This document shows positions 7,743 through 63,986 of a stretch of 63,986 nt of DNA, in pieces. Location: NCBI RefSeq assembly GCF_901765095.1, contig NC_044037.1:104487279-104551264 (forward strand), read 5' to 3'. The stretch's first letter is position 1, and every line of letters begins with the position of its first letter. The translations under genes and the position numbers were made by a program. A model generated the notes under the pieces. The model saw nothing but the letters and a program-made list of their open reading frames with translations, made no database searches and was not told where the DNA came from. Source of the DNA: Microcaecilia unicolor. Lineage: Eukaryota.

Positions 7743-9030
7743 CTCCTCGGGACCACTGCTTTTTAACATATTTATAAATGACCTAGAGATGGGAGTAACT
7801 AGTGAGGTAATTAAATTTGCAGATGACACAAAATTATTCAGGGTTGTCAAGTCGCAGGAGGAGTGTGAAAGATTACAGGAGGACCTCGCGAGACTGGGGG
7901 ATTGGGCATGCAAGTGGCAGATGAAGTTCAATGTTGACAAGTGCAAAGTGATGCATATGGGTAAGAGGAACCCGAATTACAGCTATGTCATGCAAGGTTC
8001 CGCGTTAGGAGTTACGGCAGGTGGGGGGAAGAGGGGTTGGTGGTTGGGAGGCTAGGATAGGGGAGGGCAGACTTATATGGTCTGTACCAGAGCCGATGAT
8101 GGGAGGCGGGACTGGTGGTTGGGAGGCGGGAAATACTGCTGGGCAGACTTATACGGTCTGTGCCCTGAAAAGGACAGGTACAAATTCAAGGTAAGTTATA
8201 CACATATGAGTTTGTCTTGGGCAGACTGGATGGACCATGCAGGTCTTTTTCTGCCATCATCTACTATGTTACTATGTTACTATGGACCTAGAAAGGGATC
8301 TGGGAGTCATCGTGGATAAGCCGTAAAAAACTTCTGCTCAGTGTGCTGCGCCGGCTAAGAAAGCGCACAGAATGTTGAGTATTATTAGGAAAGGGATGGA
8401 AAACAAACATGAGGATGTTATAATGCCATTGTATCGCTCCACTGTGCGACCGCACCTCGAGTATTGTGTCCAATTCTGGTCGCCGCATCTCAAAAGAGAT
8501 ATAAAGGAATTAGAAAAGGTGCAGAGAAGGGTGATGAAAATGATAAAGGGAATGGACTTCTCTATGAGGAAAGGCTGAGAAGGTTAGGGCTCTTCAGCTT
8601 GGAGAAAAGGCGGCTGAGGGGTGATATGATAGAAGTCTGCAAGATAATGAACGGAGTAGAGCGGACAGATGTGAAACGTTTGTTTACACTTTCAAACAAC
8701 AAGAAAACCATGGGACACAAGATGAAGCTAGAATATGGTAGATTTAAAACAAATAGGAGAAAGGTTTTCTTTACTCAGCGTGAAGTTAGACTCTGGAACT
8801 CGTTGCTGGAGAATGTAGTGACAGCAGCTGGCCTTACGGAATTTAAAGGGGGTTTGGACAGATTCCTGAGGGAAAAGTCAATTGAACATTATTAATTTTT
8901 TTTTTTGGGGGGTGGGGGTTACCGGGTTCTTGAAGCCTGGATTGGCTGCTGTCGGAGACAGGATGCTGGGCTTGATGGACCCTTGGTCTTTTCCCAGTAT
9001 GGCGGTGCTCATGTACTTATGTACTTGTGA
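7743..9030 (+). mobile_element. CR1/L2-clade LINE 3' portion (RT C-terminus + 3' UTR ending in a TTATGTAC repeat). It carries a ~270-bp internal insertion at ~8016-8287.
   Basis: ORFs 7789..8055, 8372..8578 and 8464..8895 match the RT C-terminus of the 53043 copy (FADDTKLF, KCKVMHMGK, HLEYCVQFWSPHLK, LGLFSLEKRRLRGDMI). The 3' end ..ctggattggctgctgtcgg..gtacttatgtacttgtg is shared with 54470-54590. Confidence 0.75.
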
Positions 9031-11253: not shown

Positions 11254-11408
11254 GATATCCCTAGCTCTCAGGCTCACTCAAAACAAGAACCCAGGTCAAT
11301 GGAACCTCGCAACGGCGAGGAAACAACAGAAATTGACCTACGAAGAACAACTAACTGAGAGTGCAGCCTGACCAGAATAAATTCGGGTCCTGGAGGGTGG
11401 AGTTGGAT

Positions 11409-14282: not shown

Positions 14283-14719
14283 CTTTGGTGAAAGAATTTT
14301 AACCTCCCTCCGACCGGCAGATCGTCCGGTACGGACACTTGTAGGGAGGCTATGTTCCCGTGGATCCAGTCAAAAGCCCGTCCCCGGCTTTTGCTGTGGA
14401 GGCGCAGGGGGCTGCTTAGGCGCACGCTGTTGACGAGAACGAGCGCGCTGGGGCTGTCCCTGTGCCTGACGAGGCCTTCGGGCCGGCTGGTTGTACCTAC
14501 GCTTCGCAAAAGAATAGGGTGCAGCCTGCCGGGCCCGGGAAAAACGTCCACCTGTGGAGGTGGATGCTGAAGGCGCCCGGTGGGAGAGCTTGTCGAGAGC
14601 GGTTTCCCGCTGATGCAGTTGGTCCACCATCTGCTCGACCTTCTCACCGAAAATGTTATCCCCCCGGCAAGGGACGTCAGCCAGTCTCTGCTGGGTGCGG
14701 TTGTCCAGGTCAGAGGCAC
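12446..14719 (-). CDS. DIRS reverse transcriptase / RNase H ORF (757 aa).
   Basis: RT YxDD motif (FPYLDDWLV). RNase H motifs TDASRLGWGA, LELRAI, TDN, NSLADRLSR. DIRS/Ngaro-type C-terminal motif PSVDLFASQTNHKLPLF...LIAPFWPRQIW. Confidence 0.85.
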   Translation of the reverse strand: MPLTWTTAPSRDWLTSLAGGITFSVRRSSRWWTNCISGKPLSTSSPTGRLQHPPPQVDVFPGPGRLHPILLRSVGTTSRPEGLVRHRDSPSALVLVNSVRLSSPLRLHSKSRGRAFDWIHGNIASLQVSVPDDLPVGGRLKFFHQRWPLITSDQWVLQIVRCGYALNLASLPPNCPPGAQSFSSHHKQVLAEELSALLSANAVEPVPPGQEGQGFYSRYFLVEKKTGGMRPILDLRGLNKFLVKEKFRMLSLGTLLPMIQKNDWLCSLDLKDAYTHIPILPAHRQYLRFRLGARHFQYCVLPFGLASAPRVFTKCLVVVAAYLRKLGVHVFPYLDDWLVKNTSEAGALRSMQCTIQLLELLGFVINYPKSHLQPSQSLEFIGALLNTQTAQAYLPEARATNLLALASQTRASQQVTARQMLRLLGHMASTVHVTPMARLHMRSAQWTLASQWFQATGNLEDVIRLSTSCRTSLLWWTIRTNLTLGRPFQIPQPSKVLTTDASRLGWGAHVDGLHTQGLWSLQEKDLQINLLELRAIWNALKAFRDRLSYQIIQIRTDNQVAMYYVNKQGGTGSRPLCQEAVGMWRWACRFGMLLQATYLAGVNNSLADRLSRVMQPHEWSLHSRVVRKIFREWGTPSVDLFASQTNHKLPLFCSRLQTHGRLASDAFLLHWGTGLLYAYPPIPLVGKTLLKLKQDRGTMILIAPFWPRQIWFPLLLELSSEEPWRLECFPTLISQNDGALLHPNLQSLALTAWMLRA

Positions 14720-16592
14720 GCAGCCATGAGAGCCTGCGCATCACTATACCTTGGGCCGCAGCACGAGATGCCACGTCACAGGTGTCAAAAATACCCCTGG
14801 ACAGGAACTTTCTGCACGCCTTCAGCTGCCTGACCACCTCCTGATAAGGCCTGGACTGCTCCGGCGGGAGCTTCTCGACCAGGTCCGCCAGTTGTTGCAC
14901 ATAGGTCCGCATGTGAATGCTCATATAGAGCAGGTATGACTGGATGCGGGTCACGAGCATGGAGGATTGGTAGGCCTTCCTCCCAAACGAGTCCAGAGTG
15001 CGAGACTCCCGCCCCGGGGGCGCCGAGGCGGTATCCCTGGAACTCCGTGCCCTCTTGAGAGCAGAATCCACGACCGCTGAGTCATGGGGCAATTGGGGCC
15101 GCATGAGCTCTGGGTCAGAGTGGATCCTGTACTGGGACTCTGCTTTCTTGGGAATGGTGGGGTTAGTTAATGGTCGCACCCAGTTCCGGAGCAGCGTCTC
15201 CTTCAGGACATTGTGCAGCGGTACCGTGGAGGACTCTCTAGGTGGTGATGGATAGTCGAGGACCTCGAGCATCTCGGCCCTCGGCTCTTCCACAGAGACC
15301 ACGGGGAAGGGAATGCTGATAGACATATCCCGCACAAAGGAGGCAAAGGAGAGACTCTCAGGAGGTGAGAGCTTCCTCTCCGGTGAAGGCGTGGGGTCCG
15401 AGGGAAGGCCCGTAGACTCCTCTGAGGAGAAATATCTAGGGTCCTCCTCTTCCCCCCACGAGTCCTCATCCTCGGTATCGGACATTAGCTCATGTAGCTG
15501 AGTCCTGTACCGGGCCCGGCTCGACGTCGAGGCACCGAGCTCTCGGTGTCGTCGAGCGGTGGACTCCCGCGCCGGCGGGGACGGAGCTCCCTCCATCGAC
15601 GTCGACGGGGACTCCACCTGCGTGGCGGTCGAGACCGGCACCGCAAGCGGCGGCGGTGTCGACAGCCCCGGCGCCGGGCTAGAGCTCGCCGGCGCCACAG
15701 TCATCGGCGCCGAGGGCGCAAGCACCCCCGGCGCCGGCACAGCCTGGCGCATCAGCCCTTCCAGGATCCCCGGAAGGATGGCTCTGAGGCACTCGTCCAG
15801 GCCCGCTGCCGGGAAAGGCGGTGGGGCCGGTAAGGGTGTCGGTGCCGGAAGCTGCTGGGGGCCAGGAGACGGCACCGAGGTGCCGGAACCCCGACGCGTC
15901 GGTACCTCCACAACCGACGGAGACCTCTCCTCACGACGATGACGCTTCGGCGTCGTCTCCTCTCCAACATCGGGATGCACCGAAGGCGACCGGTGACGAC
16001 GCTTCTTGTCTTTCTTCCGATGCACGTCACCGGCGCCGGAGGGCATGGAGGAGGAGGAGGTCGATCCCCCTCGGTCTCGAGGTACCGGGTCAGACAGGGT
16101 TCGGTCTCGCGGCCCACGAGCTGAGGGCGTGACCGGGGCCGACTGCCCACGCGGCCTCTCACCCCCACTCTCACCGGAAGACCGGCGGGCCGACGGGACC
16201 TGTTCTCCTGGGGTCGCTGCCATCGGTGCCGATGTCTCGGGCATCGATACCGGTACCGAAGGGCCGGGCGTCGATACCGATGCCTTCGAGGTCGACGTCG
16301 AGGGGCCGGCGCAAGTTCCAAAAAGACGGTCCCGCAGAACTTGCCTCGCAACCTGGGTCCGTTTCCGGAGACCGAGACACAAAGAACACGACTTGAGATT
16401 GTGCTCCGGCCCGAGGCACTGGAGGCACCAAGCGTGGGTGTCGGTCTGCGAGATCGGCCGGCCGCAGCGACCACACTTTTTAAATCCACTCGGGACCTTC
16501 GAGGACATCGACGGAAAAATCGCGTCGGCGAAGTCAAAGTCGTCAATGGTGGCTAAAATCACACCACGAAAAACAAACGACCGAGCGGCCAC
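14370..16592 (-). CDS. DIRS gag-like ORF1 (740 aa; Pro/Ser/Arg-rich; Cys-rich N-terminus).
   Basis: First long ORF downstream of the 5' ITR on the minus strand. It sits in the position of DIRS ORF1. Confidence 0.6.
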   Translation of the reverse strand: MAARSFVFRGVILATIDDFDFADAIFPSMSSKVPSGFKKCGRCGRPISQTDTHAWCLQCLGPEHNLKSCSLCLGLRKRTQVARQVLRDRLFGTCAGPSTSTSKASVSTPGPSVPVSMPETSAPMAATPGEQVPSARRSSGESGGERPRGQSAPVTPSARGPRDRTLSDPVPRDRGGSTSSSSMPSGAGDVHRKKDKKRRHRSPSVHPDVGEETTPKRHRREERSPSVVEVPTRRGSGTSVPSPGPQQLPAPTPLPAPPPFPAAGLDECLRAILPGILEGLMRQAVPAPGVLAPSAPMTVAPASSSPAPGLSTPPPLAVPVSTATQVESPSTSMEGAPSPPARESTARRHRELGASTSSRARYRTQLHELMSDTEDEDSWGEEEDPRYFSSEESTGLPSDPTPSPERKLSPPESLSFASFVRDMSISIPFPVVSVEEPRAEMLEVLDYPSPPRESSTVPLHNVLKETLLRNWVRPLTNPTIPKKAESQYRIHSDPELMRPQLPHDSAVVDSALKRARSSRDTASAPPGRESRTLDSFGRKAYQSSMLVTRIQSYLLYMSIHMRTYVQQLADLVEKLPPEQSRPYQEVVRQLKACRKFLSRGIFDTCDVASRAAAQGIVMRRLSWLRASDLDNRTQQRLADVPCRGDNIFGEKVEQMVDQLHQRETALDKLSHRAPSASTSTGGRFSRARQAAPYSFAKRRYNQPARRPRQAQGQPQRARSRQQRAPKQPPAPPQQKPGTGF

Positions 16593-16817
16593 TAGGCCGC
16601 AATGTGGCGTCCCCGCTGGAAGCGAGGGAAAAAAGGGAGCGCGTGTCCCACACGCGCAGGGTTTCTTTTTTCTTTTTTTTTTTTTAAAAGGAAACCGGGC
16701 GGTAACTAAAACCGATAAACAAAGTTAGAAAAAAACACGATCAGCGTATACGCGATCGAACGATCCGGCGGCTGAACAGAGAGAGCGCAAAACACGACTC
16801 TCTCCAGGCGCGGAAAA

Positions 16818-19599: not shown

Positions 19600-20812
19600 C
19601 ATGGAGCAGGAAGGCGGGTTGGCGGTCACAAGCCAACTGGCAGAGCCAACTTGGAAGTTCCTCAGGAAGCGCGCTGATCCGACCGCAGGCAGGGCAACAT
19701 GGGGGACCCGGGTGCGCGCACAGAGCTGGAAAGTACTACGGAAGGGCACAGCACCGTCCCGAAGTGCCAGACCCGTAGAGACAGTGAGCGTCCCCACGCC
19801 ACCGGAGAGCCCCTCCGACGAGGAGGTAAGGGGCGTGACACTTGCCCAGTTCCTCAGTGCCTTTCTCATCCATGCCTAACACTAATTACCTTCCCCATTA
19901 TCATCCAGGCACTCCAGAACAACATGGCTCAGTTGTTCACCATAGTCTGCTTTCCCTCGGTTATAGGCCTCATCAACTGCACACACATCACACTCAGACC
20001 CCCATCCACGGACACCTACAGCAGTGGCATAGCAAGGTGGGGTGCCAGGGGAACGGCCGCTCCCCCAAACAGAGTTCTGCCGGCGCTTATTTTTTTTGTC
20101 CTGTTGCACTGAAAATGTGCGCCAGCGGAAGTCCGCTCTCGCTCCCCCATGCCGTCACTGGCTCCGCTTCTGACCTACAGGAATAGAAAATCATATCACT
20201 CCATGAACATGCAGATTGTGTGTGATGCCCAGGCCCCAGGGAGATTGTGGATATATGTGCCCACTACCCAGGCTTCACCCACAATGCCTACATCCTCCAG
20301 CATTCAGGAATCTACTGCACATTTGAACAAGGGGAGATCACTGGCACCTGGCTCCTAGGTAAGCAGTACAGGGATTCCTAAACCCCATACCTCCTCCCCC
20401 CCTCTTAACCTTCAAACACACTCCTTCTCTCTAGATGCCCTCAGAACTGACAACCATTACCCCACCTCCACAAGGTCACCATACCAGCCAATACACACCC
20501 ATGTCTGTGATTCTGCTTCCCCCACCCCACAGGTGACAGAGGCTACCCCCAGCATACCTGGATCAATAATCCCATAATCCACCTCCATAATGAGGCAGGA
20601 GGAGAGTATAACGAGGCATAAGAGCACCCGCACCACCATAGAATGGACCTTTGGCCATATCAAGAATTGCTTCAGATGACTGGACCATTCCGGAGGGGAG
20701 CTCTTCTAGAGCCCTAAAAAGGTTGCCAAACGTTTGATGTCCTGCTGCTTGCTGCACAACCTGGCTCTCCAAAGAAGACAGGCCCTGCCAGAGGAGGGAC
20801 AGCAACCACAGC
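19600..20812 (+). pseudogene. Harbinger/PIF-type DDE transposase (HARBI1-like) pseudogene. It has frameshifts, two in-frame stops and two intron-like interruptions. Its 3' end continues after the hAT insertion at 23388-23480.
   Basis: Transposase motifs in order: ITFP..IQALQNNMAQLFTIVCFPSVIGLINCTHITLRPP; YRNRKSYHSMNMQIVCD; YPGFTHNAYILQHSGIY..GEITGTWLLG; then after GT..AG (20359-20532) DRGYPSIPGS; then YNEAHKSTRTTIEWTFGHIKNCFR*LDHSGGELF*SPKKVAKRLMSCCLLHNLAL. Confidence 0.65.
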
Positions 20813-21491: not shown

Positions 21492-21841
21492 CAGTGGCGT
21501 AGCCACAGGTGGGCTTGGGTGGGCCAGGGCCCACCCATTTATGGCTCGGGCCCACCCAACAGTAGCACATGTTTAGTGGTAACTAGTGGGAATCCCAAGC
21601 TCTGCCAGCTGAAGATTTCCCCCTGATGGTAACGAACATGCTACTCTCCACAACACCGGCACCTGTGCATGCTCAGTTTTCAGTGCATGCTTGCTGCCAA
21701 GGTGAAAAGAAGCGTTTTCCCACTGGCTGAGATAATTTTTTTTGGAGGGGGGGAGAACACTTGGTGCCCACCCAATTCTTGCCCAGGCCCACCCAAAATC
21801 TGTTGTCTGGCTACGCCCCTGATCCTAAAGCAAAAAAATAA
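21492..21841. mobile_element. hAT-like foldback MITE (CAGTGGCGTAGCC family) nested in element A.
   Basis: Termini cagtggcgtagccacagg.../...tggctacgcccctg. Perfect 8-bp TSD ATCCTAAA (21484-21491 and 21842-21849). Confidence 0.8.
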
Positions 21842-28500: not shown

Positions 28501-28883
28501 CAGTGGAGTAGCTACGGGGGGGCCACAGGGGCCTGGGCCCCCCAAATTGGCTCTGGAGCCCCTGGTTGGTTAGGGACCCCTGCCAGCTAAAGCGTTTGTC
28601 CAGCACTAGTTTCCGCTGCATTGCCTGCCCTGCTCCTCCCCTCATGCCTGCCCTACGCTTCCCCTCACATCACATGCATGCTCGTGTTAGTGAAATGTGA
28701 GGGGAAGAGCAGGACAGGCAATGCGGTGGAGACCAGTACTGGACAAATGCTTCAGCTGGCGGGGGTCCTGAACCCCCGCTAGCCAAGGTATGTGAAGAGG
28801 CAGTGGCAATGGAGGGGCGGGGCAGCAGGGAGGCGGGCTAAAATGCCCCCCCCCCCCCACGTTGAGGTCTGGCTATGCCACTG
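28501..28883. mobile_element. hAT-like foldback MITE (variant terminus CAGTGGAGTAGCTACG).
   Basis: Termini cagtggagtagctacggggggccacagg.../...ggctatgccactg. 8-bp TSD GGTCACAT/AGTCACAT at 28493-28500 and 28884-28891. Internal palindrome cccctcacatcacatgcatg..tgtgaggggaag. Confidence 0.6.
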
Positions 28884-35600: not shown

Positions 35601-36289
35601 TTTTTTCCTTCTGTGGATTACAACAAAGATCATTTTAGTAACCAGCACATAAGTACAAGCACCCTTTTTAACCCCTCCCTCTTCCTTGCCAAGCAGAGGC
35701 GTAGCCACGGGCGGGCCTGGATGAGCCCAGGCCCAGCCACTTTCCCTCCAGACCCACCCATCCAACATCCTTCGCTTGCTGTCACTGCTTTTTCTCCCGT
35801 GGCTCCGGGTATGGCCGTCCAGGAGGCAGTGTTCAGCGTTGCCTGCCTACCTGCCCTGAAATAATTCTTCTCCCCAGGCTCCGCTGCCTCGGTCCCTACA
35901 TTTTCTTTTTCGCCCGTCGCGCAGCGCTGACATTCACACAGGCAGCTCCGCTCTCCCCTATCGCGTCCATCTGGCCCTACGTAAACAGGAAGTGCATCAG
36001 AGAGGGCTGGATGGATGTGGCAAAGGGGAGCGGAGCTACCTGTGTGAATGGCAGCGCTGTGCAACGGGCAAAAAAGAGAATACAGGGACAGAGGCAGCAG
36101 AGCCTGGGGAGAAGAAGAATTTCAGGGCAGGTAGGCAGGCAATGATGAATGCTGCCTTCCGGACGGACATACCCGGAGCCACTGGAGAAAAGGCAGCGAC
36201 AGCGAGCGAAGGATGTTGGATGGGCGGGCCTGGAGGGCAGAACTAAAGTAAGTGCTGGACCCTTGGGGGGGGAGGACGGGGGGGGGGGC

Positions 36290-36960
36290 TGGAGGGAAGG
36301 GATAGATTTGTCGGACTTGTGGGAGGAAGGGGATTGGAGGGAAGGGAGAGACTTACTGAATGTGGGAGGAAGAGAAAGGAGGGGATCTGAATGGAAGGGA
36401 GAGATTTGCTGGAGGTGGGAGGAAAAGGAGGAGGGGATGGATGGAAGGGAGAGAGCTGTTGGACACATTGGAGCCAACTCTGTGGGTGCTGTGGGTGCTT
36501 GAGAGCCCCAATATTGAGAAAATTCCTTGTATGTGTCCAGGGAGGGGTTATTTTCATTGGGCTTAGCACCCCCAATAATTTTGAAAAGTTGGCTCCTATG
36601 GCTGGACATGGGAGGGAGAGGAGGAAGGGGCTGGAGAGCTGCTGGTCAAGGGAGGAAGAAGGGACTGGAGGGAAGGGAGAGAGCTACTGGACATGGGAGA
36701 AAGAGGAGGAAGGGACTGGAGGGAAGGGAGAGAGCTGCTGGACATGGGAGGAAGAGGAGGAGGGGATCTGGGTGGAAGGGAGAGAGCTGCTGGACATGGG
36801 AGGAAGAGAAGGAGGGGACTGGGTGGAAGGGAGAGAGCTGCTGGATGTGGGAGGAGGTGGCTGGAGAGAATGAGCTGCTGGATGTGGGAGTAAGAGGAGG
36901 AGGGGATCTGGATGGAAGGGAGAGAGCTGCTGGACGTGGGAGGAAGAGGGGGAACAGAAC
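36290..36960. repeat. Minisatellite, ~51-bp unit x ~10 (gggactggagggaagggagagagctgctggacatgggaggaagaggagga), within a 1.3-kb purine-rich block (36150-37460).
   Basis: Directly visible tandem units. The overlapping ORFs (36391..36873, 36527..37075, minus-strand ORFs) are repeat artefacts. Confidence 0.7.
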
Positions 36961-37999
36961 TGGCGGGAAGGGAGAACTGCTGGTACAGCACAAGGAGGGA
37001 GGGAAGGAAGGGAAACAGAGATACCAGACCAAGGACATGAAGGAAAAGGGAACAAATACTAAACCTACAGTGTGAGGGAGGGAGGAAGGGAGGGTGGGGT
37101 GGGTGGCTGGGCAGGCAGAGAATCAAACAACCAAACCAGATGCTGGAAAGGGGAGGGAGTGAGAGGGAGAGAAGCTGGACGGGGTAGGGTCAGAGAGGGT
37201 AGAGATATAATGGCACTGGGGACAAAGCGGGTGGAGAAGCTGGACAGAGAAATATAGGGACGCAGAGAAAGGGAGATACTAAACATGGAGGAAGATAGAG
37301 GTACAGAGATGAAAGAAGATGGATAGTGAACATGGAGAGAGAGTAGAAATATCAAATGGACATGAAACCTTGGTGAGTGAGTTAAGAGAAGACAGAAGGA
37401 TGTAGAAACCAGAGCCTGGGACCAACATGACTTGGAAAAAATAAAATGAGCAGACAACAAAAGGTAGAAAAAAGAATTTTATTTTTCTATTTTGTGACTA
37501 GAATATGTCAGATTTTAAATGTACATCCTGCCAGAGCTGGTATTAGAATATGGCTGGGGCCCACGGCAGATATTTAGGAGGGGACGCCAAAGCTTACTAA
37601 CAGGCTGCACCTTCTTCAGCTTCCAGCTGGCCTGGGGGTTCTCTCTGGCCAGGGGGCCAAACGCAGTTGCCCTAGTTGTACCTCCCCTAACACTGTCTCT
37701 TGCATGTGCTATCATATTTTGCACAGTATAGGAGAAAATGCATCTCTTTGTATTTCTCTGTGCTGTGCTAAATGCAAGGTCTGGCCTCTTGGGATTTTGA
37801 TTTAATTTGTTTATGGTTTGTGGTCACTTATTCTGTATTTGGCATTTGTGTTCTGTGTGTGTGACCGAAGTATTCTGTTTGCATCAATTTTCTATGTAGT
37901 ATTCTATAGTACTTTGGCTTGTTCAGTTTTCTTGATGTATTGATATTTTAGGGCCCCACTGTAATATTTAGGGCATATTTGGGGGAAGCATATGTGTGT

Positions 38000-38239
38000 T
38001 GGCGGACCGTGGCTTAGTGGAGGATGAAGAGTGCTCCCTCTTATATTTCCCCTAGCTCTCAATGTGGCCTGCAGCCACTGAGGCCAGCACTGCTACTCCC
38101 ATTGAAGTTATTGGGAGTGGGGTAGGTGTGCAGTAGGAGTAGGGGCATGGGCAGGGCATATCAGGTGCAGGTGTTTCTCTAGTGCCCGTCCATCCAACCT
38201 GTTGGCGCACCCAAAAATTGCCTTCTGTCTATGCCACTG
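38000..38239. repeat. 3' fragment of a CAGTGGCGTAGCC-family hAT MITE (inverted relative to the copy at 60625).
   Basis: 38190-38239 ..acctgttggcgcacccaaaaattgccttctgtctatgccactg is the reverse complement of 60625-60670. The interior matches 60700-60830. Confidence 0.5.
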
Positions 38240-49587: not shown

Positions 49588-50113
49588 CAGGGGCGTATCT
49601 GCGTGGGGCCACAGGGACCTGAGCCCCCACAGATTTCGCCCTGGACCCCCCTACCGCCGTTAACCCTCCCCCGCCTACCGTCGTCAACCCTTTCCCCGAG
49701 GTCCGTTTCCTCCTGCCGGTTTTTAAAAATATTACTTCAGCTGGCGGGGGACCCCAACCCCCGCCAGCCCAGCCGAGATCTTGTTTGAGTTCTTCATCCT
49801 CGTGCTGTGAAAGCTGCATCCCTTCCAGATGGACGGAGTCTGACGTTGCAGCACGTCAGACTCCGTCCAACTGGAAGGGATGCAGCTTTCACAGCACGAG
49901 GATGAAGAACTCAAACAAGATCTCGGCTGGGCTGGCGGGGGTTGGGGTCCCCCGCCAGCTGAAGTAATATTTTTTTAAAAACCGGCAGGAGGAAGCTGAC
50001 CTTGGGGATAGGTGACGGCAGTAGGCGGGGCAGCGGCCGGGGGGGGGGGCTATAATGTGCCCCCTCACTCTAGCCCCTGCCCCCCCTACCGCCGAACCTC
50101 AGATACGCCCCTG
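49588..50113. mobile_element. hAT-like foldback MITE, full length. The entire element is one long palindrome.
   Basis: Termini caggggcgtatctgcgtggggccacagg.../...cagatacgcccctg. Perfect 8-bp TSD ATTTGTAC at 49580-49587 and 50114-50121. Central palindrome 49780-49930. Confidence 0.85.
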
Positions 50114-52879: not shown

Positions 52880-54590
52880 AGCATGATTTAGCAACAGAGC
52901 CCCACAATGGGCAGATGAGAGCCATAAGGAGCAGAAGTAAGGGCAGTTCAGCAAACTGAAGAGTAGCAAATCTCCTGGACCGGATGGTATTCATCCTAGA
53001 GTACTAATAGAACTGAAAAATGAGCTTGCCGAGCTTCTGTTAGTGATATGCAATTTATCCTTAAAATCGGGCATGGTACCGGAAGATTGGAGGGTGGCCG
53101 ATGTAACGCTGATTTTTAAAAAAGGTTCCAGGGGAGATCCGGGAAATTATAGACCGGTGAGTCTGGCGTCGGTGCCAGGGAAAATGGTAGAGGCTATTAT
53201 TAAGAACAAAATTACAGAGTACATCCAAGGACATGGATTACTGAGGCCAAGTCAGCACGGCTTTAGTGTGGGGAAATCTTGCCTGACCAATTTACTTCAA
53301 TTCTTTGAAGGAGTAAACAAACATGTGGACAAAGGGGAGCCAGTTGATATTGTGTATCTGGATTTTCAAAAGACGTTTGATAAGGTACCTCATGAAAGGC
53401 TACAGAGGAAATTGGAGGGTCATGGGATAGGAGGAAATTTCCTATTGTGGATTAAAAACTGGTTGAAGGAAAGGAAACAGAGAGTGGGGTTAAATGGGCA
53501 GTATTCACAATGGAGAAGGGTAGTTAGTGGGGTTCCTCAGGGGTTAGTGCTAGGACTGCTGCTTTTTAATATATTTATAAATGATTTAGAGATGGGAGTA
53601 ACTAGCGAGGTAATTAAATTTGCTGATGACACAAAGTTATTCAAAGTCATTAACTCGCGAGAGGTTTGTGAAAAATTACAGAAGGACCTTACGAGACTAG
53701 GAGGCTGGGCAGCTAAATGGCAGATGATGTTTAATGTGAACAAGTGCAAGGTGATGCATGTGGGGAAAAAGAGCCCGAATTATAGTTACGTCATGCAAGG
53801 TTCCACGTTAGGAGTTACGGACCAAGAAAGGGATCTGGGTGTCATCGTTGATAATACACTGAAACCTTCTGCTTAGTGTGCTGCTGCAGCTAGGAAAGCA
53901 AATAGAATGTTGGGTATTATTAGGAAAGGTATGGAGAACAGATGTGAGGATGTTATAATGCCATTCTATCGCTCCATGGTGCGACCGCACCTTGAGTATT
54001 GTGTTCAATTCTGGTCGCCGCATCTCAAGAAAGATATAGTAGAACTGGAAAAGGTGCAGCGAAGGGCGACAAAAATGATAGCGGGGATGGGACGACTTCC
54101 CTATGAAGAAAGACTAAGGAGGCTAGGGCTTTTCAGCTTGGAGAAGAGACGGCTGAGGGGAGACATGATAGGGTTATATAAAATAATGAGTGGAGTGGAA
54201 CAGGTGGATGTGAAGTGTCTGTTCACGCTTTCCAAAAATACTAGGACTAGGGGGCATGCAATGAAACTACAGTGTAGTAAATTTAAAACAAATTGGAGAA
54301 AATTTTTCTTCACTCTGGAATTCGTTGCCGGAGAACATAGTGAAGGCGGTTAGCTTGGCAGAGTTTAAAAAGGGGTTGGACGGTTTCCTAAAGGACAAGT
54401 CCATAGACCGCTACTAAATGGACTTGGGAAAAATCCACAATTTCGGGAATAACTTGTATAAAATGTTTGTACGTTTGGGTAGCTTGCCAGGTGCCCTTGA
54501 CCTGGATTGGCTGCTGTCGGGGACAGGATGCTGGGCTCGATGGACCTTTGGTCTTTTCCCAGTATGGCATTACTTATGTACTTATGTAGG
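52880..54590 (+). mobile_element. CR1/L2-clade LINE, 5'-truncated, with a near-complete RT domain and 3' UTR. It is the best-preserved copy of this family in the window.
   Basis: ORF 53043..53876 plus 53907..54353. Upstream, SKSPGPDGIHPRVL is in frame. RT motifs YLDFQKTFDKVPH, FADDTKLF, KCKVMHVGK. The 3' end ..cattacttatgtacttatgtagg is like 8990-9030. Confidence 0.85.
53043..53876 (+). CDS. CR1-like reverse transcriptase ORF (277 aa; partial, ends at a frameshift/stop).
   Basis: Six-frame ORF with RT motifs as above. Confidence 0.8.
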   Translation: MICNLSLKSGMVPEDWRVADVTLIFKKGSRGDPGNYRPVSLASVPGKMVEAIIKNKITEYIQGHGLLRPSQHGFSVGKSCLTNLLQFFEGVNKHVDKGEPVDIVYLDFQKTFDKVPHERLQRKLEGHGIGGNFLLWIKNWLKERKQRVGLNGQYSQWRRVVSGVPQGLVLGLLLFNIFINDLEMGVTSEVIKFADDTKLFKVINSREVCEKLQKDLTRLGGWAAKWQMMFNVNKCKVMHVGKKSPNYSYVMQGSTLGVTDQERDLGVIVDNTLKPSA

Positions 54591-57659: not shown

Positions 57660-58930
57660 AACTGAAAAGTATATGTTGAAACCCTCTGCTCAGTGAGCAG
57701 CAGTAGCTAAGAGAACAAATAGAATGGTAAGTATTATTAGGAAAGGAATGAAAAACAAAAAATGAGAATGTTATAATGCCTTTATATCGCTCCATGGTGT
57801 GACCACACCTCGAATACTGTGTGCAATTCTGGTCATGCATCTCAAAAAAGATTTGTGGGGGGGGGGGGCATTTTTGATATAACATCTAAATCCAACTTTG
57901 GATGTTTACAGAAAAAGTTCAAAAATCCAGCAGCAAACACAGCCATTTTCAAAAATAGAAAAACATCTTTTTGTTTCAAAAATGGCTATTTCCTAGATGT
58001 TGTTGTGCTCAGTGTGTCTATCTTTACGGACCATGAAAAAAAAAAATCCAAATGAAAAACACACAGAAATCAAGGAATTCGGATGTAGAAGCCAGCATAC
58101 TTAGTAGACTGGCCACACAGATATCCCAGCAGAGCAGTGGGACACCCTAGGGGGTGGACTTCACTGCAGTGGACTTCACATAAAAAGTCCCAGGTACACA
58201 GCTCACTGTTACCACCTCATATTGTATGGGGAGCTCGCCAGAAACCCACTGTACAACACTACAATAGCCATTACTGCTGCAGTTTTCATCTCTACATGGG
58301 TACAGTGGGTTTTTGGTGGGCTTACACTTTCCACAAGTGCAACGAGTGGGATATGGGCCTGGGTCCCTTTCTCTACAGTTCACTGCACCAATAAGGCTAC
58401 TCCAGGGACCTGTCTGCTGCTCTAATAGGACTGGTCATAACATCTGATGCTGTCCTAGAGCTTGATATGTACCAATTCTTTCACGTCTTTGGGGGTTGGG
58501 GGTGGGGGTGGGAGAGGATCATTGACCACTAGAGGAGTAAGGGGGGAATAATTCCTTAATCCCTCCACTGGTCACCTGGTCAATTAGGACACCCTTTTCT
58601 GACTTATAAAAACAGGTTTAGACCAAAATGTATAAATTATAGCCCTGGATGTTTTCGTTTTGTTCCATTATGGCAGAAAAACATCAAAGTTTTGGGAACA
58701 TCTAAACCCCACCCCAGGCACACACCCCCTTGTGAACTGGACATATTGCAGATGAACTGCATAGTAAAACATCTTTAAACATGTGTTTCGAAAATAGCGA
58801 CTTGGACATTTTTCTGTTTCAAAGATGAGCCCCATAGCAGAATTAGAAAAGGTACAGAGAAGGGTGACGAAAATGATAAAGGGGATGGGATGATTTCCTT
58901 ATGAGAAAAGGCTAAAGTGGCTAAGAAGGG
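57660..58930 (+). mobile_element. CR1-like RT C-terminal fragment (57660-57850 and 58830-58930), split by a ~980-bp unclassified insertion.
   Basis: ..IIRKGMKNK..YNAFISLHGVTTPRILCAILV.. and ..ELEKVQRRVTKMIKGMG..YEKRLKWL match the 8372-8640 and 53907-54130 RT segments. The intervening sequence is unrelated. Confidence 0.5.
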
Positions 58931-59380
58931 CATAATCGAAAGATCATCCAAATACGAATTAGGACGTTCTTACGAAAGCATCCAAAAATAGACATGTAAA
59001 ACCGAAAAATAGTATGTGCGTTTTTCGATAAACGATTATCCCTGTAGCAAAACAATCAAATGAGGAGCGCATAAGCGTGACAAAATTGGGCGCCCTAACA
59101 CGGTCGATTATTGCAGGTGCAAACGACCAAATCAGAAAGTGTGTAAAAGAATGCACATAGGTGTACCGCAAGTACAGTACATGTTGTTCTGGCCATCTTA
59201 CTGGAAAATATGAGGAACGCGTATATGTGTCAACTACAGAAAAATCATGCTGCTCCACCCATACTTTCCTCATATGTGCCCATCTGCATGTCCGGATCTG
59301 CATGCACTGTACACCTACTGAACATGCAGCTATATGCATATTGTGTATATGTGAAAAGGGTCGGCTGCGTCATACTCATC

Positions 59381-59536
59381 TATATAAGGCCGCACACATA
59401 ACCAGGCATGTGCACGTCAAAGACGTCTATGCTTACGAGGGCATCCACGTGCTGATAGGGCCATATATGGGATGGTCATCCATATATGGAGCTGTGCATG
59501 AAACGACATCCCTCACGCAAGGTCGTCTATATAAGG
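59381..59536 (+). promoter_or_regulatory. Two copies of the TATA-like motif TC(A/G)TCTATATAAGGC (59381-59389 and 59528-59536) upstream of the putative Myb-like ATG.
   Basis: The exact TATATAAGG motif occurs twice, 147 bp apart. The proximal copy is only ~26 bp from the ATG. Confidence 0.3.
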
Positions 59537-59561
59537 CACTTGTTTTCCAACACGTGGAAAA

Positions 59562-59722
59562 ATGGCGCAGCGACGGGAGCCGAACTTCGGGCAGGAGGAG
59601 AGCCTGCTGCTGGTGCGCCTGTGCCTAAGGCACCGGCACAGGCTCTTCATACAACACCACCACCTGCCCCCCAGGCTCCAGGCCATGCGAGCCTGGTCCC
59701 GCATCAGGGACAGGCTTGAAAG
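59562..59722 (+). CDS. Putative exon 1 (ATG to GT donor) of a Myb/SANT-like (Harbinger-associated, NAIF1/Myb_DNA-bind_5-like) DNA-binding protein.
   Basis: MAQRREPNFGQEESLLLVRLCLRHRHRLF..LPPRLQAMRAWSRIRDRLER has the N[FW]..E...L...(hydrophobic)....AW..I pattern of Harbinger-associated Myb-like domains. It ends at ag|gtaagg. Confidence 0.4.
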
Positions 59723-60415
59723 GTAAGGTTATGGGCCAACCCCCCTCCCCTCCTGTACCTACACATATAACAGCTCCGTCATCAATGTTACCACCAGTAA
59801 CTGGAGTGTCCATGCAAGGATAATGACTAATATAGGAACATGCACAATCACTAATAAATTGTATGTTATTGAAAGGACGACCATTCCCACATCCCTACAA
59901 GAATGTATTTCGTTAGTTATGTATGTCTTGCCTGTGAAGGCCACATTTTCCAACCCCTCTTTGCAGCCTCTATGTGGCTTACAACGCATCCGAATAGTGG
60001 AAACATGATACCAATGAAACGTATACCATACTTTATAACATGGTCATGATAACACATATAAAGTAGTTTTACAAGCATACATTATAATGCATACAAACGG
60101 TACTTTCTGGCCTCATGCCCACCTCTCTGGCATCATCTGCATAGGAACCAACTCGGTGGCTGCTGTGGGTGCTTGACCACCCCCAATATAAAATAAATGC
60201 CTTGAATGTATGGAGGGAGGGGTAATCTCCACTGGGGGTTCCACCCCCCAAAATGGTAAAAAGGTGGCTCCTAAGATTCAGTACCAATGGAGGTGGTCCC
60301 CCCCCCAACACTGTTGACCCTCTCTCTCTGGTATTTGAATAGCAAATGAATGTGTGCAGAGGACAAAAAGGACCATCCTCCCCTGACCCCTGCTCTACAA
60401 ACTTATATCTTACAG

Positions 60416-60525
60416 ACGTTTTAGAGTGCACCGGGACCTCGAGTCCCTCAGGAGGCGGTTCCGCCGTGTGAGGCGGGAGAGGCCTGACCTCATCCGGGCG
60501 GTGCAAAGGCACCTCAGGGCTCGCC
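60416..60525 (+). CDS. Putative exon 2 of the Myb/SANT-like gene.
   Basis: The acceptor tatcttacag| and donor |gtaagt give phase-consistent splicing with exon 1. It encodes RRFRVHRDLESLRRRFRRVRRERPDLIRAVQRHLRAR. Confidence 0.35.
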
Positions 60526-60624
60526 GTAAGTATTCAAAAACAGGACACCTGTACAGATTTGTAAATACACTTCTTGAATAATGCGAATGTGTTGTACAAT
60601 ATCAATTCCCATGTGCCTAATAGC

Positions 60625-60830
60625 CAGTGGCGTAGCCAGAAGGCAATTTTTGGGTGGGCCAACAGGTCAGATGGGTGGGCACCAGGGTTGCTAACTTTTT
60701 GAAATTGAAAAACTTGCCTCCCGATGCCCCACCTCTACCCCACTCCCAATAACTTAAATGAGGGTAGCAGTGCAGGCTTCAGTGACTGCAGGCCACATTG
60801 AGGGCTAGGGGGAAATACAAGAGATTGTAC
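60625..60830. repeat. Partial CAGTGGCGTAGCC-family hAT MITE (5' half), within the putative Myb-like intron 2 region.
   Basis: cagtggcgtagccagaaggcaatttttgggtgggccaacagg... Reverse-complement match to 38000-38239. Confidence 0.5.
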
Positions 60831-61759
60831 TCTTCAGCCTCGGTCCCCTAACACACATACTTAGCCTGTATAGCAAGACCAAATACTTTTCAACACGTCT
60901 CTAGGTACACGCTATAGAAACAATCCCAGAAAGTATAGTGTAGTATTAAAGGCAAATAAATTCTGCATCCACAGAACCCCCTGACACCCCCCCCCCCTGA
61001 CACCCCCCCACCCCCACCCGTCCCAATGGGTGCAGAGTAGAATTAGGACATTTCCCAATAAAACTCACCATAATCTCAACAGCTGCCATATAGTAAATAA
61101 AACAATCTTTAAAATAAAATGTCACTCATAACCTAGAGCAAATCTACGATGCCAGCACTAACTTCCAAAACAAGGATCCTACCTATGAAAAAGGCATTGC
61201 CCTACATATTACAGTGGGGTCCTAAAATAGCAATAAGTCTATTGGGAAAACTGAACAAACCAAAATTACTACAGAAGGCTACATAGAAAATTCATACTAA
61301 CAGAATACCTCAATCACACACATGGACCAAAAATGCCAAAATATAGAATAATCGACTACAAATTATAAACATAAATTTAATCAAAACCCCAAGAAGCCAG
61401 ACCTTGCATGTAATACAATACCAAAGAAACAGAAAGACATGCATTTCCTCCTGTGCAAAATGTAAAGATAGTATGTGCCAGGGATGGTGTTAGAAGAATG
61501 CAACTGGAGCAATTGCTGTCGGTCCCCTGGCCAGAGAGAGCCACAAGCATGATGGAAGCTGAAGGCAGTGTAGTCTCGTGATGGGCTTTGGGGTTCCCTC
61601 CCAAATTTATGGCCTGGGCTCCAGCCATGTCTAACACCAGCTCTGGCAAGATGTACATTCCAAATCTGACATATTCTAATCACAAAATAGAAAATAAAAT
61701 TATTTTTCTACCTTTTGTTGTCTGGCTATTTTATTTTTCAAATCAGCTTGGTCCTAGTC

Positions 61760-62800
61760 TCTGGTTTCTGCTTTCCTCAGTCTTAATTCACTCACCAGGT
61801 CTCCTTTTTTGTCATGCCTTCTCTCTCCATGTCCACGATCCATTTCCCATCTCTGTGTCCCCAAAGTTCCTTGTCCAGTATCTCCACTGTGTTCAAAATC
61901 CTGCAACCATCACCCTTTTATCCCCTACCCCTGTGCCCAACATCACCCCTTGTGTCCCTATGCCCTCCCATATCCAGTACCTCCCTTCTGAGTTCCTATT
62001 CTCCCCTATATCTAGTATCTCTCCCCTGTGTCCATATACCCCTCCCTCCCAGTGTCCAGCATAGCCTCTCTATTCCCAAATCCCCCCCCCCCCCCTCTGT
62101 CAGGCATTGCCCCTCTGTGTTTATATGCCATCCCCATATAGCATCTCAGATCTGTTTCTGTATCTCCCCTTTCTCCCTCACCCACACCAATGTCTCTCTT
62201 TCCTCTGCGATCCCACCTATCCAGCTTCTCTCCTTCCTTCCAGCTTTTGGCTCTTTCTCCTACTGTGAGTTAAAAATTTGTCTCCCTCTTCCTTCATCCC
62301 CTTGACCAGTCATCTCTCTCCCTTCCCTCCTCATCTCTCCCCCTGCTACAGCACCTCTGTTTCTTCCCTGAGCCTCCCCTGCAAGCCTACCCTCTAGCCC
62401 CCCCCCCCCCCCCATAGGTCCAGCACCTCCCTTCCTTCTAGCCTGCCCCTCCTTGCAGGTCCAGCAACTTCCTTCCTTTCCTCCAGCCCCCAGCCTCTCC
62501 CCCTTAGGTCCAGCACCTCTCTTCCTTCACTCCAGAGTCCAGCCCCTCCCCCCCAATAAATCCAGCACCTCTCTCCCTTGCCTCAGCGAGCCACTTCCCC
62601 CCTTGCAGGTCCAGAACCTCTCTGCCTTCTTTCCAGCCAACCCCTCCCTTTTGTAGGTCTAGAACCTCTTTCCTTTCCTTTCCTTTCCTTTCCTTTCCCT
62701 TCCCTTCTCTTCGGCCTCCAGTCCCCCACCTCACACAGGTGCAGCCACTGTTTCCCAGCCTGCCCCTCTCCCACCCTGCAAGTACAGCCACTCACTCCCA
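61760..62800. repeat. CT-rich low-complexity block with degenerate short tandem units (ccttt x6 at ~62672-62700).
   Basis: Pyrimidine-rich plus strand. It follows a degenerate MITE terminus (gttgtctggctat at ~61722), paralleling 21830-22980. Confidence 0.55.
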
Positions 62801-63039
62801 GTCCGCCCTGCAGGTCAGCATTACTTCATCCTTTTCCCTCACTCTCACTGTGCTGCAGATGGCCACGAGCGGAGCAGAGCGGAGTGAGTGAGGTCGAGGC
62901 TGTGCACGCTGCCACGTCATACTGCACGTAGGATGGACCAAGCTGCGCGACGTGACCTGCATTTCAGTGGGCTGGACGGAGAAGTGGAGATCAGCTGAGC
63001 GGGTGCCGTCTGCGGTTGTACGCTACGCGATCGCGATCG

Positions 63040-63149
63040 CGTAGAAAACATTGAAAAAAGGCTGCGCTGCAGTGTGTGCGCTTGGGCGGGCCTGAGGTGA
63101 AATTGGACGGGCCTGGGCCCACCCAGGCCCACCCGTAGCTATGCCCCTG
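63040..63149. repeat. 3' terminal fragment of a CAGTGGCGTAGCC-family MITE.
   Basis: ..gggcctgggcccacccaggcccacccgtagctatgcccctg matches the 3' ends of the 21492 and 17783 elements. Confidence 0.4.
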
Positions 63150-63694
63150 CTAATAGCCAACTAGTAAGTAATAACATATCTGTCCCAGATCAAGGATGCA
63201 GGTTGCAGGGGTTCTCCCATGAGTGTGGCTGCAACTTCCGACCATCCCTCCAAGATGAATGAGATGATATGCCTCACTTTACTATTCCCCTTTCTGTGGT
63301 GGCTGATTAGTGTGTCCTGGTAGACCTGCCTGAGGCCCTACTTTTACTGCATGTCATGGCCTAACTCACATAAAAGTTTTGTGCTCAACACCTTTCCCAC
63401 TGCCCCCCCCCCCAATAAATCCTACAACAACTGCCCATCAACCCCTCGTTGCATCTCACAATGCAAACATGCTGGTCAGCAATGAATTTGGTATGGCAAC
63501 ATGTCCTGTGTGGTGTGTGTCAGAGGAGGTTCCAGGGTTCTTTGTCATGTCATCTGATGCAGCTCATTCCCCATGGGCATAGGCTACGCCTTACCACACC
63601 CTGGCCCATCCCCCGCCTCACGCCACCCAGCTACTGCACTATGCAAGCCATGTTGTATGCGCTGATCTCAATCACACTCCTTTTACATACACAG

Positions 63695-63986
63695 GGCTCC
63701 ACCACCAGCAAGCCGAGCAGGCAGATGAGGAGGGCCACCACCTGCAGGAGGAGGAGGAGGAGGAGCAGGAGCAGGAAAGCCACGAGGAGGAGGAGGAGGA
63801 GGATGAGGAGGCGGCGACGCCTGCACAGGAGGCGGAGGAGGAGGAGTCATCGGGCTCGGAGGAGGGGGTCCTCGTCATAGATGAGGACTATATGGAGGCC
63901 CCCTCCCCACCTGTACCAGCAGCAGAGCCCTCTCCCTCCCCTCGGCCATCCACATCCCCTGCGGCAGCACCATCACCTGCCCCACC
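63695..63986 (+). CDS. Putative exon 3 (open to the window end) encoding an acidic, then Pro/Ser-rich region. It is phase-compatible with exon 2.
   Basis: The acceptor ttttacatacacag| yields ..LHHQQAEQADEEGHHLQEEEEEEQEQESHEEEEEEDEE..SSGSEEGVLVIDEDYMEAPSPPVPAAEPSPSP.. with no stop. Confidence 0.3.

Follow-up and report, generated by a model that had tools for sequence, protein, structure and literature searches.

The distal end of the window (the whole stretch of 63,986 nucleotides from Microcaecilia unicolor analyzed here) raises the question of whether a split reading frame with Myb-like features belongs to a real gene and, if it does, whether that gene is carried by a transposon or has been taken over by the host. 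The last 5 kb of the window contain the intact 5' part of an intron-containing Myb/SANT-like gene of a type that Harbinger transposons carry (Table 1).

Table 1. Coordinates of the candidate gene and of the features around it (splice junctions marked by a slash).
Feature	Position (strand)	Details
5'-truncated CR1/L2-like LINE fragment	57677..58923 (+)	itself interrupted at 57853-58839; from self-BLAST and copy alignment
5' block (promoter or transposon subterminal region)	58924..59561 (+)	~640 bp, motif-rich, single-copy in the window
Distal CTATATAAGG, TATA-like or CArG-like	59380..59389 (+)	
Two perfect CCATATATGG palindromes, CArG-type CC[A/T]6GG	59461..59489 (+)	19 nt apart, start to start
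Proximal CTATATAAGG	59527..59536 (+)	34 nt upstream of the ATG
Exon 1	59562..59722 (+)	161 nt, 53 codons + 2 nt; ATG at 59562-59564
Intron 1	59723..60415 (+)	693 bp, 44% GC, CpG o/e 0.24
Exon 2	60416..60525 (+)	110 nt; acceptor ttacag/, donor C/GTAAGT
Intron 2 (three-exon model)	60526..63694 (+)	3169 bp; ~636 bp minus the nested element
Non-autonomous hAT-type element, complete	60625..63149 (+)	2525 bp, nested in intron 2
Putative exon 3	63695..63986 (+)	acceptor ttttacatacacag/G; phase-compatible, open to the window end

Gene Model and Myb Domain

The initial annotation proposed an ATG at 59562, a 53-codon first exon ending in the donor AG/GTAAGG and a phase-compatible second exon, and all of these coordinates were confirmed, with canonical splice sites for exon 2 and the best-scoring junction between the two exons. 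The Kozak context of this ATG is strong (A at -3, G at +4). Helices 1 and 2 of the Myb_DNA-bind_5 domain are encoded by exon 1 (family-HMM positions 1-52) and helix 3 by exon 2 (positions 55-79), which continues into an Arg-rich basic stretch. Both introns are canonical GT..AG and in phase, the GC content is 66-67% in the exons and 44-47% in the introns, and intron 1 contains two repeat fragments (59913-60000 and 60140-60273). Read past the exon 2 donor, the frame stops after 18 codons (ending in RARRKYSKTGHLYRFVNTLLE); the three-exon model gives a stop-free product of 187 codons, with the acidic stretch and Pro/Ser-rich tail that had been described and a composition of 0 Lys, 29 Arg and 35 Glu. 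The ORF, its ATG and the four splice sites have stayed intact despite the 2.5-kb element nested in intron 2. In GC-rich sequence, stops are few in several frames. An overlapping ORF (59161-59628) has no domain match, and no Rfam family was found in the window.

A profile search for a Myb/SANT-like domain, which had been named beforehand as the check that could overturn the gene, was positive. The spliced 91-aa N-terminus matches Pfam PF13873 (Myb_DNA-bind_5) with an E-value of 2e-9 and 37.6 bits (gathering cutoff 21.7), and the match, which aligns residues 5-75 to model positions 1-71 of 78, crosses the exon 1/exon 2 junction. When the 20 stop-free GT-AG combinations were scored with an independent family HMM, the proposed junction came out on top, at 28.8 bits for spliced exons 1-2 vs. 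19.1 bits for exon 1 alone. Exon 1 is also the sole significant match to this HMM among 1980 six-frame pieces of the window, and the exon 2 piece covers the complementary model positions. Since the profile match spans the junction and the junction is the best-scoring combination, we regard this split coding sequence for a Myb/SANT-like protein of Harbinger-associated type as real, judged from its sequence. Trihelix proteins carry a conserved bulky aromatic residue in each of their three helices. Here F9 and W45 are retained, the third helix has Phe (F68) in place of Trp and a near-invariant Asn after helix 2 is lost, and the profile comparisons show the predicted Myb_DNA-bind_5 trihelix domain to be divergent but complete.

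Homologue Searches

The protein databases that we searched hold annotated turtles, newt, frogs, caecilian and fish but not the source genome, and negative searches are therefore silent on annotation or expression in that genome. The spliced 101-aa N-terminus had no match at E ≤ 1e-3 among 5.8 billion proteins including the NCBI/UniRef vertebrates. Neither an orthologue nor a paralogue was found among the NCBI/UniRef vertebrate proteins (source genome absent), so that a NAIF1 orthologue was rejected at the same threshold and the earlier description of the gene as “NAIF1-like” is too specific. The DIRS reverse-transcriptase ORF of the window has a best identity of 51%, to Pleurodeles and turtles. 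In an exhaustive search of 1.84 billion representative proteins with exon 1 only as the query, the only real match was LOC143118918 of Alosa pseudoharengus (XP_076136214; 32% identity over exon 1, E 3.5e-5), a second match (P0002) being a repeat-protein artefact. One ORF of the window, looked up by exact identity, had no record. Metagenome DNA was scanned for a 26-mer from the 3' end and, separately, for a degenerate exon 1 pattern, with 0 matches in either scan, and no orthologous sequences were retrieved from either the protein databases or the metagenome scans.

The Putative Third Exon

An exon 3 from 63695 had been proposed on the strength of its phase and its open frame. It does fit the phase and stays open as far as the window end, but the open frame is weak evidence of coding because a large part of it is trinucleotide repeat: an (AGG/GAG)n tract at 63728-63846 makes up ~40% of the exon, and at least 13 of 214 other AG sites tested open at least 90 codons in phase. 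The acceptor (acacag/) has pyrimidines at 9 of the 11 positions from -15 to -5 followed by CAG/G, a CTGAT branch-point-like site lies ~30 nt upstream of it, and the 46 non-repeat codons at the end of the exon are open in no other frame. The exon would code for poly-Glu followed by Pro/Ser-rich sequence. It matched no Pfam family, its ORF as a homologue query gave no match, and the likeness of its tail to Harbinger proteins is compositional only. Exon 3 is a plausible candidate exon.

The 5' Block and the LINE Boundary

Homology of the LINE fragment to its sister copies (8450-8660 and 53980-54190) breaks off at ~58924-58932, short of the LINE 3' end by at least 450 bp, and is not resumed in the next 5 kb after 58924. 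The gene block starts at ~58924, exactly at this break. The candidate element end at 58924-58932 adjoins TAA, and neither an inverted match to it nor MITE derivatives of it were found elsewhere in the window. The 5' block has kept its CpGs (o/e 0.96 at 43% GC; 29 CpG vs. 13.5 expected, P ~2e-4), whereas both introns (o/e 0.20-0.24) and the flanks are depleted. Its motifs include three copies of CGATTAT (one of them inverted, at the extreme block end), CTTACGARRGCATCCA twice, CACGTG twice and GACGTC; the ATAATCG at the block terminus recurs inverted at +101 and +173, 3/4 of the CGATTAT copies in the window fall within 180 bp, and a 16-mer in the block has 2 occurrences vs. 0.08 expected.

The duplicated TATA motif noted earlier is present in the sense that the window has exactly two copies of CTATATAAGG, both before the ATG (0.11 expected; none of 100 shuffles reached 2), but its reading as a TATA box appears awkward from the leader geometry. 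With a start site ~30 nt past the distal copy, the leader would contain five upstream ATGs, of which three open out-of-frame ORFs that extend beyond the main start, and with the proximal copy as TATA the leader would be ~4 nt. The two CCATATATGG palindromes account for 2 of the 6 window matches to CC[A/T]6GG.

The Nested hAT-Type Element and the Transposase Relic

What had been taken for a partial MITE at 60625-60830 proved to be the left end of the complete hAT-type element in intron 2. Elements of the hAT type are recognized by an 8-bp target-site duplication and by short terminal inverted repeats starting with CAG. Both were found at the intron 2 insert, which has the perfect duplication CTAATAGC at 60617-60624 and 63150-63157 and the inverted terminal repeats CAGTGGCGTAGC and CAGGGGCATAGC; its ORFs contain no domains. 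Five further bounded copies of the family in the window each have an 8-bp duplication, the terminal repeats of all six copies take the form CAG[T/G]GGCGTAGC, and 47 of 48 target-duplication positions over the six copies are identical. These near-perfect duplications point to young insertions, and the nested family accordingly looks young. An argument that selection had kept the ORF intact beside an “old” hAT family, whose copies are 75-77% alike, was dropped for this reason. With a young family the intact ORF needs no selection; the probability of an intact ORF is 0.66 at 2% substitutions.

A Harbinger transposase relic had been placed ~40 kb from the gene, and we find a decayed Harbinger DDE transposase at ~19950-20800, 39 kb away. 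This relic, which clearly indicates that the genome has hosted Harbingers, is far older than the gene, with at least 5 stops and at least 3 frameshifts, and no second Myb-like relic was found beside it. An autonomous Harbinger has a DDE_Tnp_4 transposase in the same element, terminal inverted repeats and a 3-bp TWA target duplication. No DDE (DDE_Tnp_4) transposase ORF was found in 58924-63986, a span that ends at the window edge.

Comparison with Known Myb-Like Proteins

The transposon-encoded proteins used for comparison include Harbinger-3_DR, Harbinger-2_DR and Harbinger-1/3_LC (PMC9179366, Supplementary data S2). As in these proteins, the trihelix begins within the first 5-10 residues (here at residue 5), and the N-terminus is in register with a profile of the fish and coelacanth transposon-encoded Harbinger Myb-like proteins, with the invariant F, E and W retained. 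The hhalign probability against the transposon-encoded profile is only 10%, and pairwise identities are ~15-20%, which is not significant. The order after the domain, from a basic stretch to an acidic one and then to Pro/Ser-rich low-complexity sequence, is common to fish Harbinger Myb-like proteins. The candidate differs from its transposon-encoded relatives in having Arg for KKKW-type residues, Phe for the third Trp and a poly-Glu tract, and in that a neighbouring transposase or terminal repeats were not seen within the window. A TGGG..LTPxEE motif follows the Myb domain in the 8 transposon-encoded Myb_DNA-bind_5-type Harbinger proteins used for modelling (PMC9179366), and this motif is absent from all six frames of 59000-63986 by regular expression and motif HMM (best E 0.18).

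The Alosa protein has three tandem Myb_DNA-bind_5 domains vs. one here, and is lysine-rich whereas the candidate product is without lysine; a GGG..L(T/S)xLE motif is retained in at least two of these three repeats, while the candidate lacks TGGG..LTPxEE. The alignment to it is gapless across the candidate's exon 1/exon 2 junction. An intron position common to the two genes was rejected, since each Alosa domain lies within one exon. A profile built from the candidate and Alosa domains matches the whole DNA-binding domain of Drosophila Zeste (PDB 5cqq) with a borderline E-value of 0.013, and this match supports a three-helix DNA-binding fold for the predicted domain. Zeste is the nearest solved structure, though very distant, and is a host transcription factor without transposon context.

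In vertebrates, NAIF1 and MSANTD1-4 derive from Harbinger Myb-like genes by domestication (PMC9392472). They resemble the candidate in domain superfamily, in presumed origin and in layout, with low-complexity sequence after an N-terminal trihelix, but they are ancient, syntenic and under purifying selection, whereas the LINE boundary of the candidate points to a much later arrival. Until copy number and synteny are known, the locus is best labelled a Harbinger-type Myb-like gene and neither a NAIF1 orthologue nor an ordinary host transcription factor.

Origin and Possible Function

We see about an even chance that a fairly young Harbinger-type insertion accounts for the locus, which would then be the 5' part of its Myb-like (second) gene. 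A Harbinger-type copy would have inserted into the CR1-like LINE at ~58924, recently enough to stay intact; the hAT-type element landed in the second intron afterwards. The functions published for Harbinger Myb-like proteins (PMC9392472, citing Sinzelle 2008) are motif binding near the element ends, nuclear import and transposase recruitment. By analogy, the trihelix may bind short repeated motifs near the element ends (CGATTAT, CTTACGARRGCATCCA and CATCCAWATA are candidates in the 5' block), the basic stretch may direct nuclear import, and the protein may recruit a DDE transposase whose gene would lie beyond the window on the downstream side. Exon 3, acidic and then Pro/Ser-rich, would be a low-complexity linker as in fish Harbinger proteins, with a C-terminal helical part expected beyond the window. 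The cut of the LINE at the block edge is the signature of an insertion, and the lack of an orthologue among NCBI vertebrate proteins, the motif-rich 5' block and the transposase relic in the window count in the same direction. A transposase ORF, a second terminal repeat and a target duplication are not visible since the other end of such an element would be outside the window. The single-copy state of the block in the window, the missing TGGG..LTPxEE motif, the odd composition and the much greater age of the relic count against a transposon, and the CpG-keeping block next to depleted introns also fits a germline-unmethylated host promoter. If transposon-borne and intact, the gene would attest to recent Harbinger activity in a genome that otherwise shows Harbingers only as an old, decayed relic in the window.

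The main rival, possible but doubtful in our estimation, is a lineage-specific domesticated host gene that likewise arrived by insertion into the LINE and acts as a nuclear DNA-binding or transcription factor, with a basic trihelix, an acidic poly-Glu and Pro/Ser-rich effector tail and the 5' block as a non-methylated promoter. The CpG excess of the block over introns and flanks, the loss of the transposon-typical motif, the single copy within the 64-kb window and the strong Kozak context all fit such a gene, as does the survival of the ORF, start codon and four splice sites around the nested 2.5-kb element when ~5 disabling mutations might be expected in 187 codons at the density of the transposase relic. 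Given the youth of the nested hAT family, however, an intact ORF is no longer an argument for selection. The truncated LINE at the block edge shows that the gene's origin was recent and mobile, and with neither orthologue nor paralogue in turtles, newt, frogs, caecilian and fish any domestication would be recent and narrow. Domesticated Harbinger-derived genes are characterized by synteny across species, single copy and dN/dS <1 (PMC9392472). In its fullest form, which we think rather unlikely, a recent lineage-restricted domestication would have shed the motif, changed every Lys to Arg, gained a poly-Glu tail and come under a germline-unmethylated 5' block with paired CArG-type palindromes, giving a new host transcription factor that is possibly SRF-responsive. 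A domesticated gene would be one more recurrent co-option of Harbinger Myb-like genes, of which the vertebrate list is already long (PMC9392472). Neither a transposon-borne nor a domesticated gene would surprise a specialist, and the value of the locus, an ordinary find for a transposon-rich vertebrate genome, is mainly for annotation.

It is improbable that exons 1 and 2 are a dead Harbinger-derived Myb relic joined to a microsatellite with a chance frame, with no functional protein. The trinucleotide repeat, the lack of a domain match in exon 3, the other phase-compatible acceptors that open at least 90 codons and the early stop on read-through after exon 2 would suit a remnant, and so would the awkward promoter geometry, the missing post-Myb motif, the Trp to Phe change and the lost Asn. 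Yet no damage is seen in the 90 codons of exons 1-2, in the ATG or in either splice-site pair, and exon 3 has a good acceptor with a branch-point-like site, the GC content of exons 1-2, 46 terminal non-repeat codons open in this frame alone and the acidic to Pro/Ser-rich order of the fish Harbinger Myb-like proteins. A chance ORF with fortuitous GT/AG sites and no gene, for which the scarcity of stops in GC-rich sequence might speak, has a negligible probability and is effectively refuted by the Pfam match above its curated cutoff, by the window scan, in which exons 1 and 2 fall on complementary parts of the model, and by the rank of the proposed junction above all other combinations.

Structure and Coding Potential of the Candidate Gene

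The initial annotation had proposed a three-exon Myb/SANT-like gene, and its exon coordinates, splice sites and phase fit agree with the sequence: the model is phase-compatible and runs for 187 codons without a stop. The exons are 66–67% GC with a GC3 of 77%, the introns 44–47% GC, and the composition of the product is extreme (0 Lys, 29 Arg, 35 Glu and 12 His among 187 residues). The predicted domain was recovered when the spliced 91-aa N-terminus was compared to Pfam Myb_DNA-bind_5 (E 2e-9; 37.6 bits against a cutoff of 21.7). Residues 5–75 match model positions 1–71 of 78, so the alignment extends past residue 54, where exon 1 joins exon 2.

We also built a family HMM from transposon-encoded Harbinger Myb-like domains and the three domains of the Alosa protein (the closest database relative, described below), with the candidate excluded. 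Among 1980 six-frame ORF pieces from the window, exon 1 was the sole significant match (model positions 1–52), and the exon 2 piece covered the complementary positions 55–79. The proposed splice gave the top score of 20 stop-free GT..AG combinations, at 28.8 bits compared to 19.1 bits for exon 1 alone, and alignment to the Alosa domains requires no gap at the junction. A chance origin of exons 1–2 is excluded. The candidate is very probably a real, intron-split and apparently intact Harbinger-type Myb-like coding sequence.

Support for exon 3 is weaker than for exons 1–2. It is phase-compatible, follows a good acceptor and equals exons 1–2 in GC content; no other frame is open over its last 46 codons. 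Against it, 63728–63846 is an (AGG/GAG)n tract, it has no domain match in Pfam, at least 13 of 214 other AG sites tested are phase-compatible with at least 90 open codons, and without it the frame hits a stop 18 codons past exon 2. Fish Harbinger Myb-like proteins likewise carry an acidic and then a Pro/Ser-rich stretch C-terminal to the domain, a likeness to the candidate tail that is compositional only.

Coordinates of the candidate exons and of repeat elements in the window
Feature	Position	Remarks
Exon 1	59562–59722	Starts at ATG 59562; donor AG/GTAAGG
Exon 2	60416–60525	Acceptor ttacag/; donor C/GTAAGT
Putative exon 3	from 63695	After acacag/ at 63694; frame open up to window end
hAT-type element, complete, 2525 bp	60625–63149	Terminal repeats CAGTGGCGTAGC/CAGGGGCATAGC; perfect 8-bp duplication CTAATAGC
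hAT-type MITE/non-autonomous copies	20022–20172, 21492–21821, 28501–28883, 35694–38239, 49588–50113, 60625–63149	Six bounded, 8-bp duplications
Harbinger DDE transposase relic	19950–20800 (+)	At least 5 stops and at least 3 frameshifts
DIRS-like retrotransposon	~11400–16600 (−)	Apparently intact
CR1/L2-like LINE, four copies/fragments	1–442, 7750–9023, 53043–54588, 57677–58923	One family, 73–85% alike

Relatives of the Candidate

Exon 1 as a query against 1.84 billion representative proteins returned one real relative, an uncharacterised protein of Alosa pseudoharengus (32% identity, E 3.5e-5). This protein has three Myb_DNA-bind_5 domains, none of them split between exons. The spliced N-terminus and the exon 3 ORF found no homologue in a protein database that includes NCBI vertebrates and leaves out the source genome. 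Since NCBI vertebrate proteins are covered, the candidate is not orthologous to NAIF1 or any other conserved gene, and NAIF1-like is too narrow a label. The absence of the source genome shows in the intact DIRS reverse-transcriptase ORF of the window, whose best identity in the database is 51%, to Pleurodeles and turtles; the lack of matches therefore carries no information on whether the source species annotates or expresses the gene.

Transposon-encoded Harbinger Myb-like sequences came from the supplement of PMC9179366, machine-read from PDF with small errors possible, and pairwise similarity of the candidate to these proteins is not significant. The Harbinger Myb-like domain profile aligns with it in register, retaining the invariant F, E and W (E 0.0032, probability 10%). 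The motif TGGG..LTPxEE, which directly follows the domain in eight PMC9179366 proteins and, among the three repeats of the Alosa protein, in at least two, is absent from all frames of 59000–63986. Among solved structures, the DNA-binding domain of Zeste comes closest (5cqq, E 0.013).

Genomic Setting

Homology of the adjoining CR1-like LINE fragment to two sister copies ends at 58923/58924 (±8 bp), at least 450 bp short of the LINE 3' end, and does not resume over the remaining 5 kb. Between this breakpoint and the ATG lies a 638-bp block, present once in the window, that has retained CpG (o/e 0.96; 29 CpG vs. 13.5 expected, P ~2e-4) while its flanks and the introns have an o/e of 0.1–0.3. The block is an assembly of short repeated motifs, with CGATTAT three times (terminal copy inverted) and CTTACGARRGCATCCA twice (0.08 expected).

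Directly upstream of the ATG, motifs that are palindromes or nearly so are densely clustered at 59380–59560: the perfect CArG-type palindrome CCATATATGG is present twice, as are CTATATAAGG and CACGTG, and GACGTC once. They might be sites of the SRF, bHLH or CREB type, or else be bound by a transposon's own protein. The duplicated TATA motif reported initially is present, as CTATATAAGG occurs in the whole window at 59380 and 59527 only (0.11 expected), but the copies are awkward as TATA boxes: the proximal one would leave a leader of ~4 nt, and the distal one would place five upstream ATGs in the leader, with out-of-frame ORFs that extend beyond the main start opening at three of them. The start-site context AAAAATGGCGCA appears loosely similar to the TISU element, which is used with very short leaders.

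What had been read as a partial MITE at 60625–60830 in intron 2 is part of a complete 2525-bp hAT-type element, with both ends and the 8-bp duplication found. The terminal-repeat motif of this abundant family, CAG[T/G]GGCGTAGC, has 15 occurrences in the window where 1.67 are expected. Family members measure from 151 bp to 2.5 kb. The duplications of the six bounded copies are identical at 47/48 positions, so the insertions are young, even though the copies are only 75–80% alike, which suggests several sub-families with recent activity.

Transposon Gene or Host Gene

At about even probability, we read the candidate as a transposon-borne Harbinger Myb-like gene. The sign of an insertion into the LINE, a terminal block rich in motifs, the usual home of the family in Harbinger elements and the past presence of Harbinger in this genome (the transposase relic) argue for this, as does the failure to find orthologues in the database with NCBI vertebrates but not the source genome. 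According to PMC9392472 (citing Sinzelle 2008), the trihelix of Harbinger Myb-like proteins binds the element ends, and the proteins import and recruit the transposase; by analogy, the candidate may do the same. The young age of the nested hAT element also speaks for this reading, as it means that intactness of the candidate requires no selection; from substitutions alone, a divergence of 2% gives a probability of 0.66 of remaining intact, and one of 5% gives 0.35.

A lineage-specific domesticated gene, which by analogy might act as a nuclear DNA-binding regulator, is a tentative alternative that we think less likely. It is favoured by CpG retention in the 5' block beside CpG-depleted introns, loss of the transposon-typical TGGG..LTPxEE, the single copy in the window, and the contrast between an apparently intact candidate and a wrecked transposase relic. 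That the candidate is dead, a remnant whose exon 3 is spurious, appears improbable. The result is ordinary and useful for annotation.

Other Elements in the Window

A 151-bp hAT-family MITE (duplication ACCTACAG) sits within the transposase relic, between its DGTH and NRK motifs, and a search beside the relic found no Myb-like relic. The LINE copy adjoining the candidate is interrupted by a ~990-bp insert (57853–58839), and another has an open 277-aa reverse-transcriptase ORF at 53043–53876. Inside the intron 2 hAT element, 62840–63100 is GC- and CpG-rich (o/e 0.65) and holds the palindrome GCGATCGCGATCGC; it is preceded by CT-rich tandem repeats of 38-bp and 49-bp units (61947–62552) and a (CTTTC)8 tract (62668–62707).

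The DIRS-like retrotransposon has three long ORFs: gag-like (LAP2alpha-like match), reverse transcriptase/RNase H with YLDD, and a C-terminal tyrosine recombinase. Best database identity of the reverse-transcriptase ORF is 46–51%, to turtles and Pleurodeles, and the family or genome is therefore absent from the protein database. The 5' region of the element is CpG-rich (o/e 1.0–1.46).
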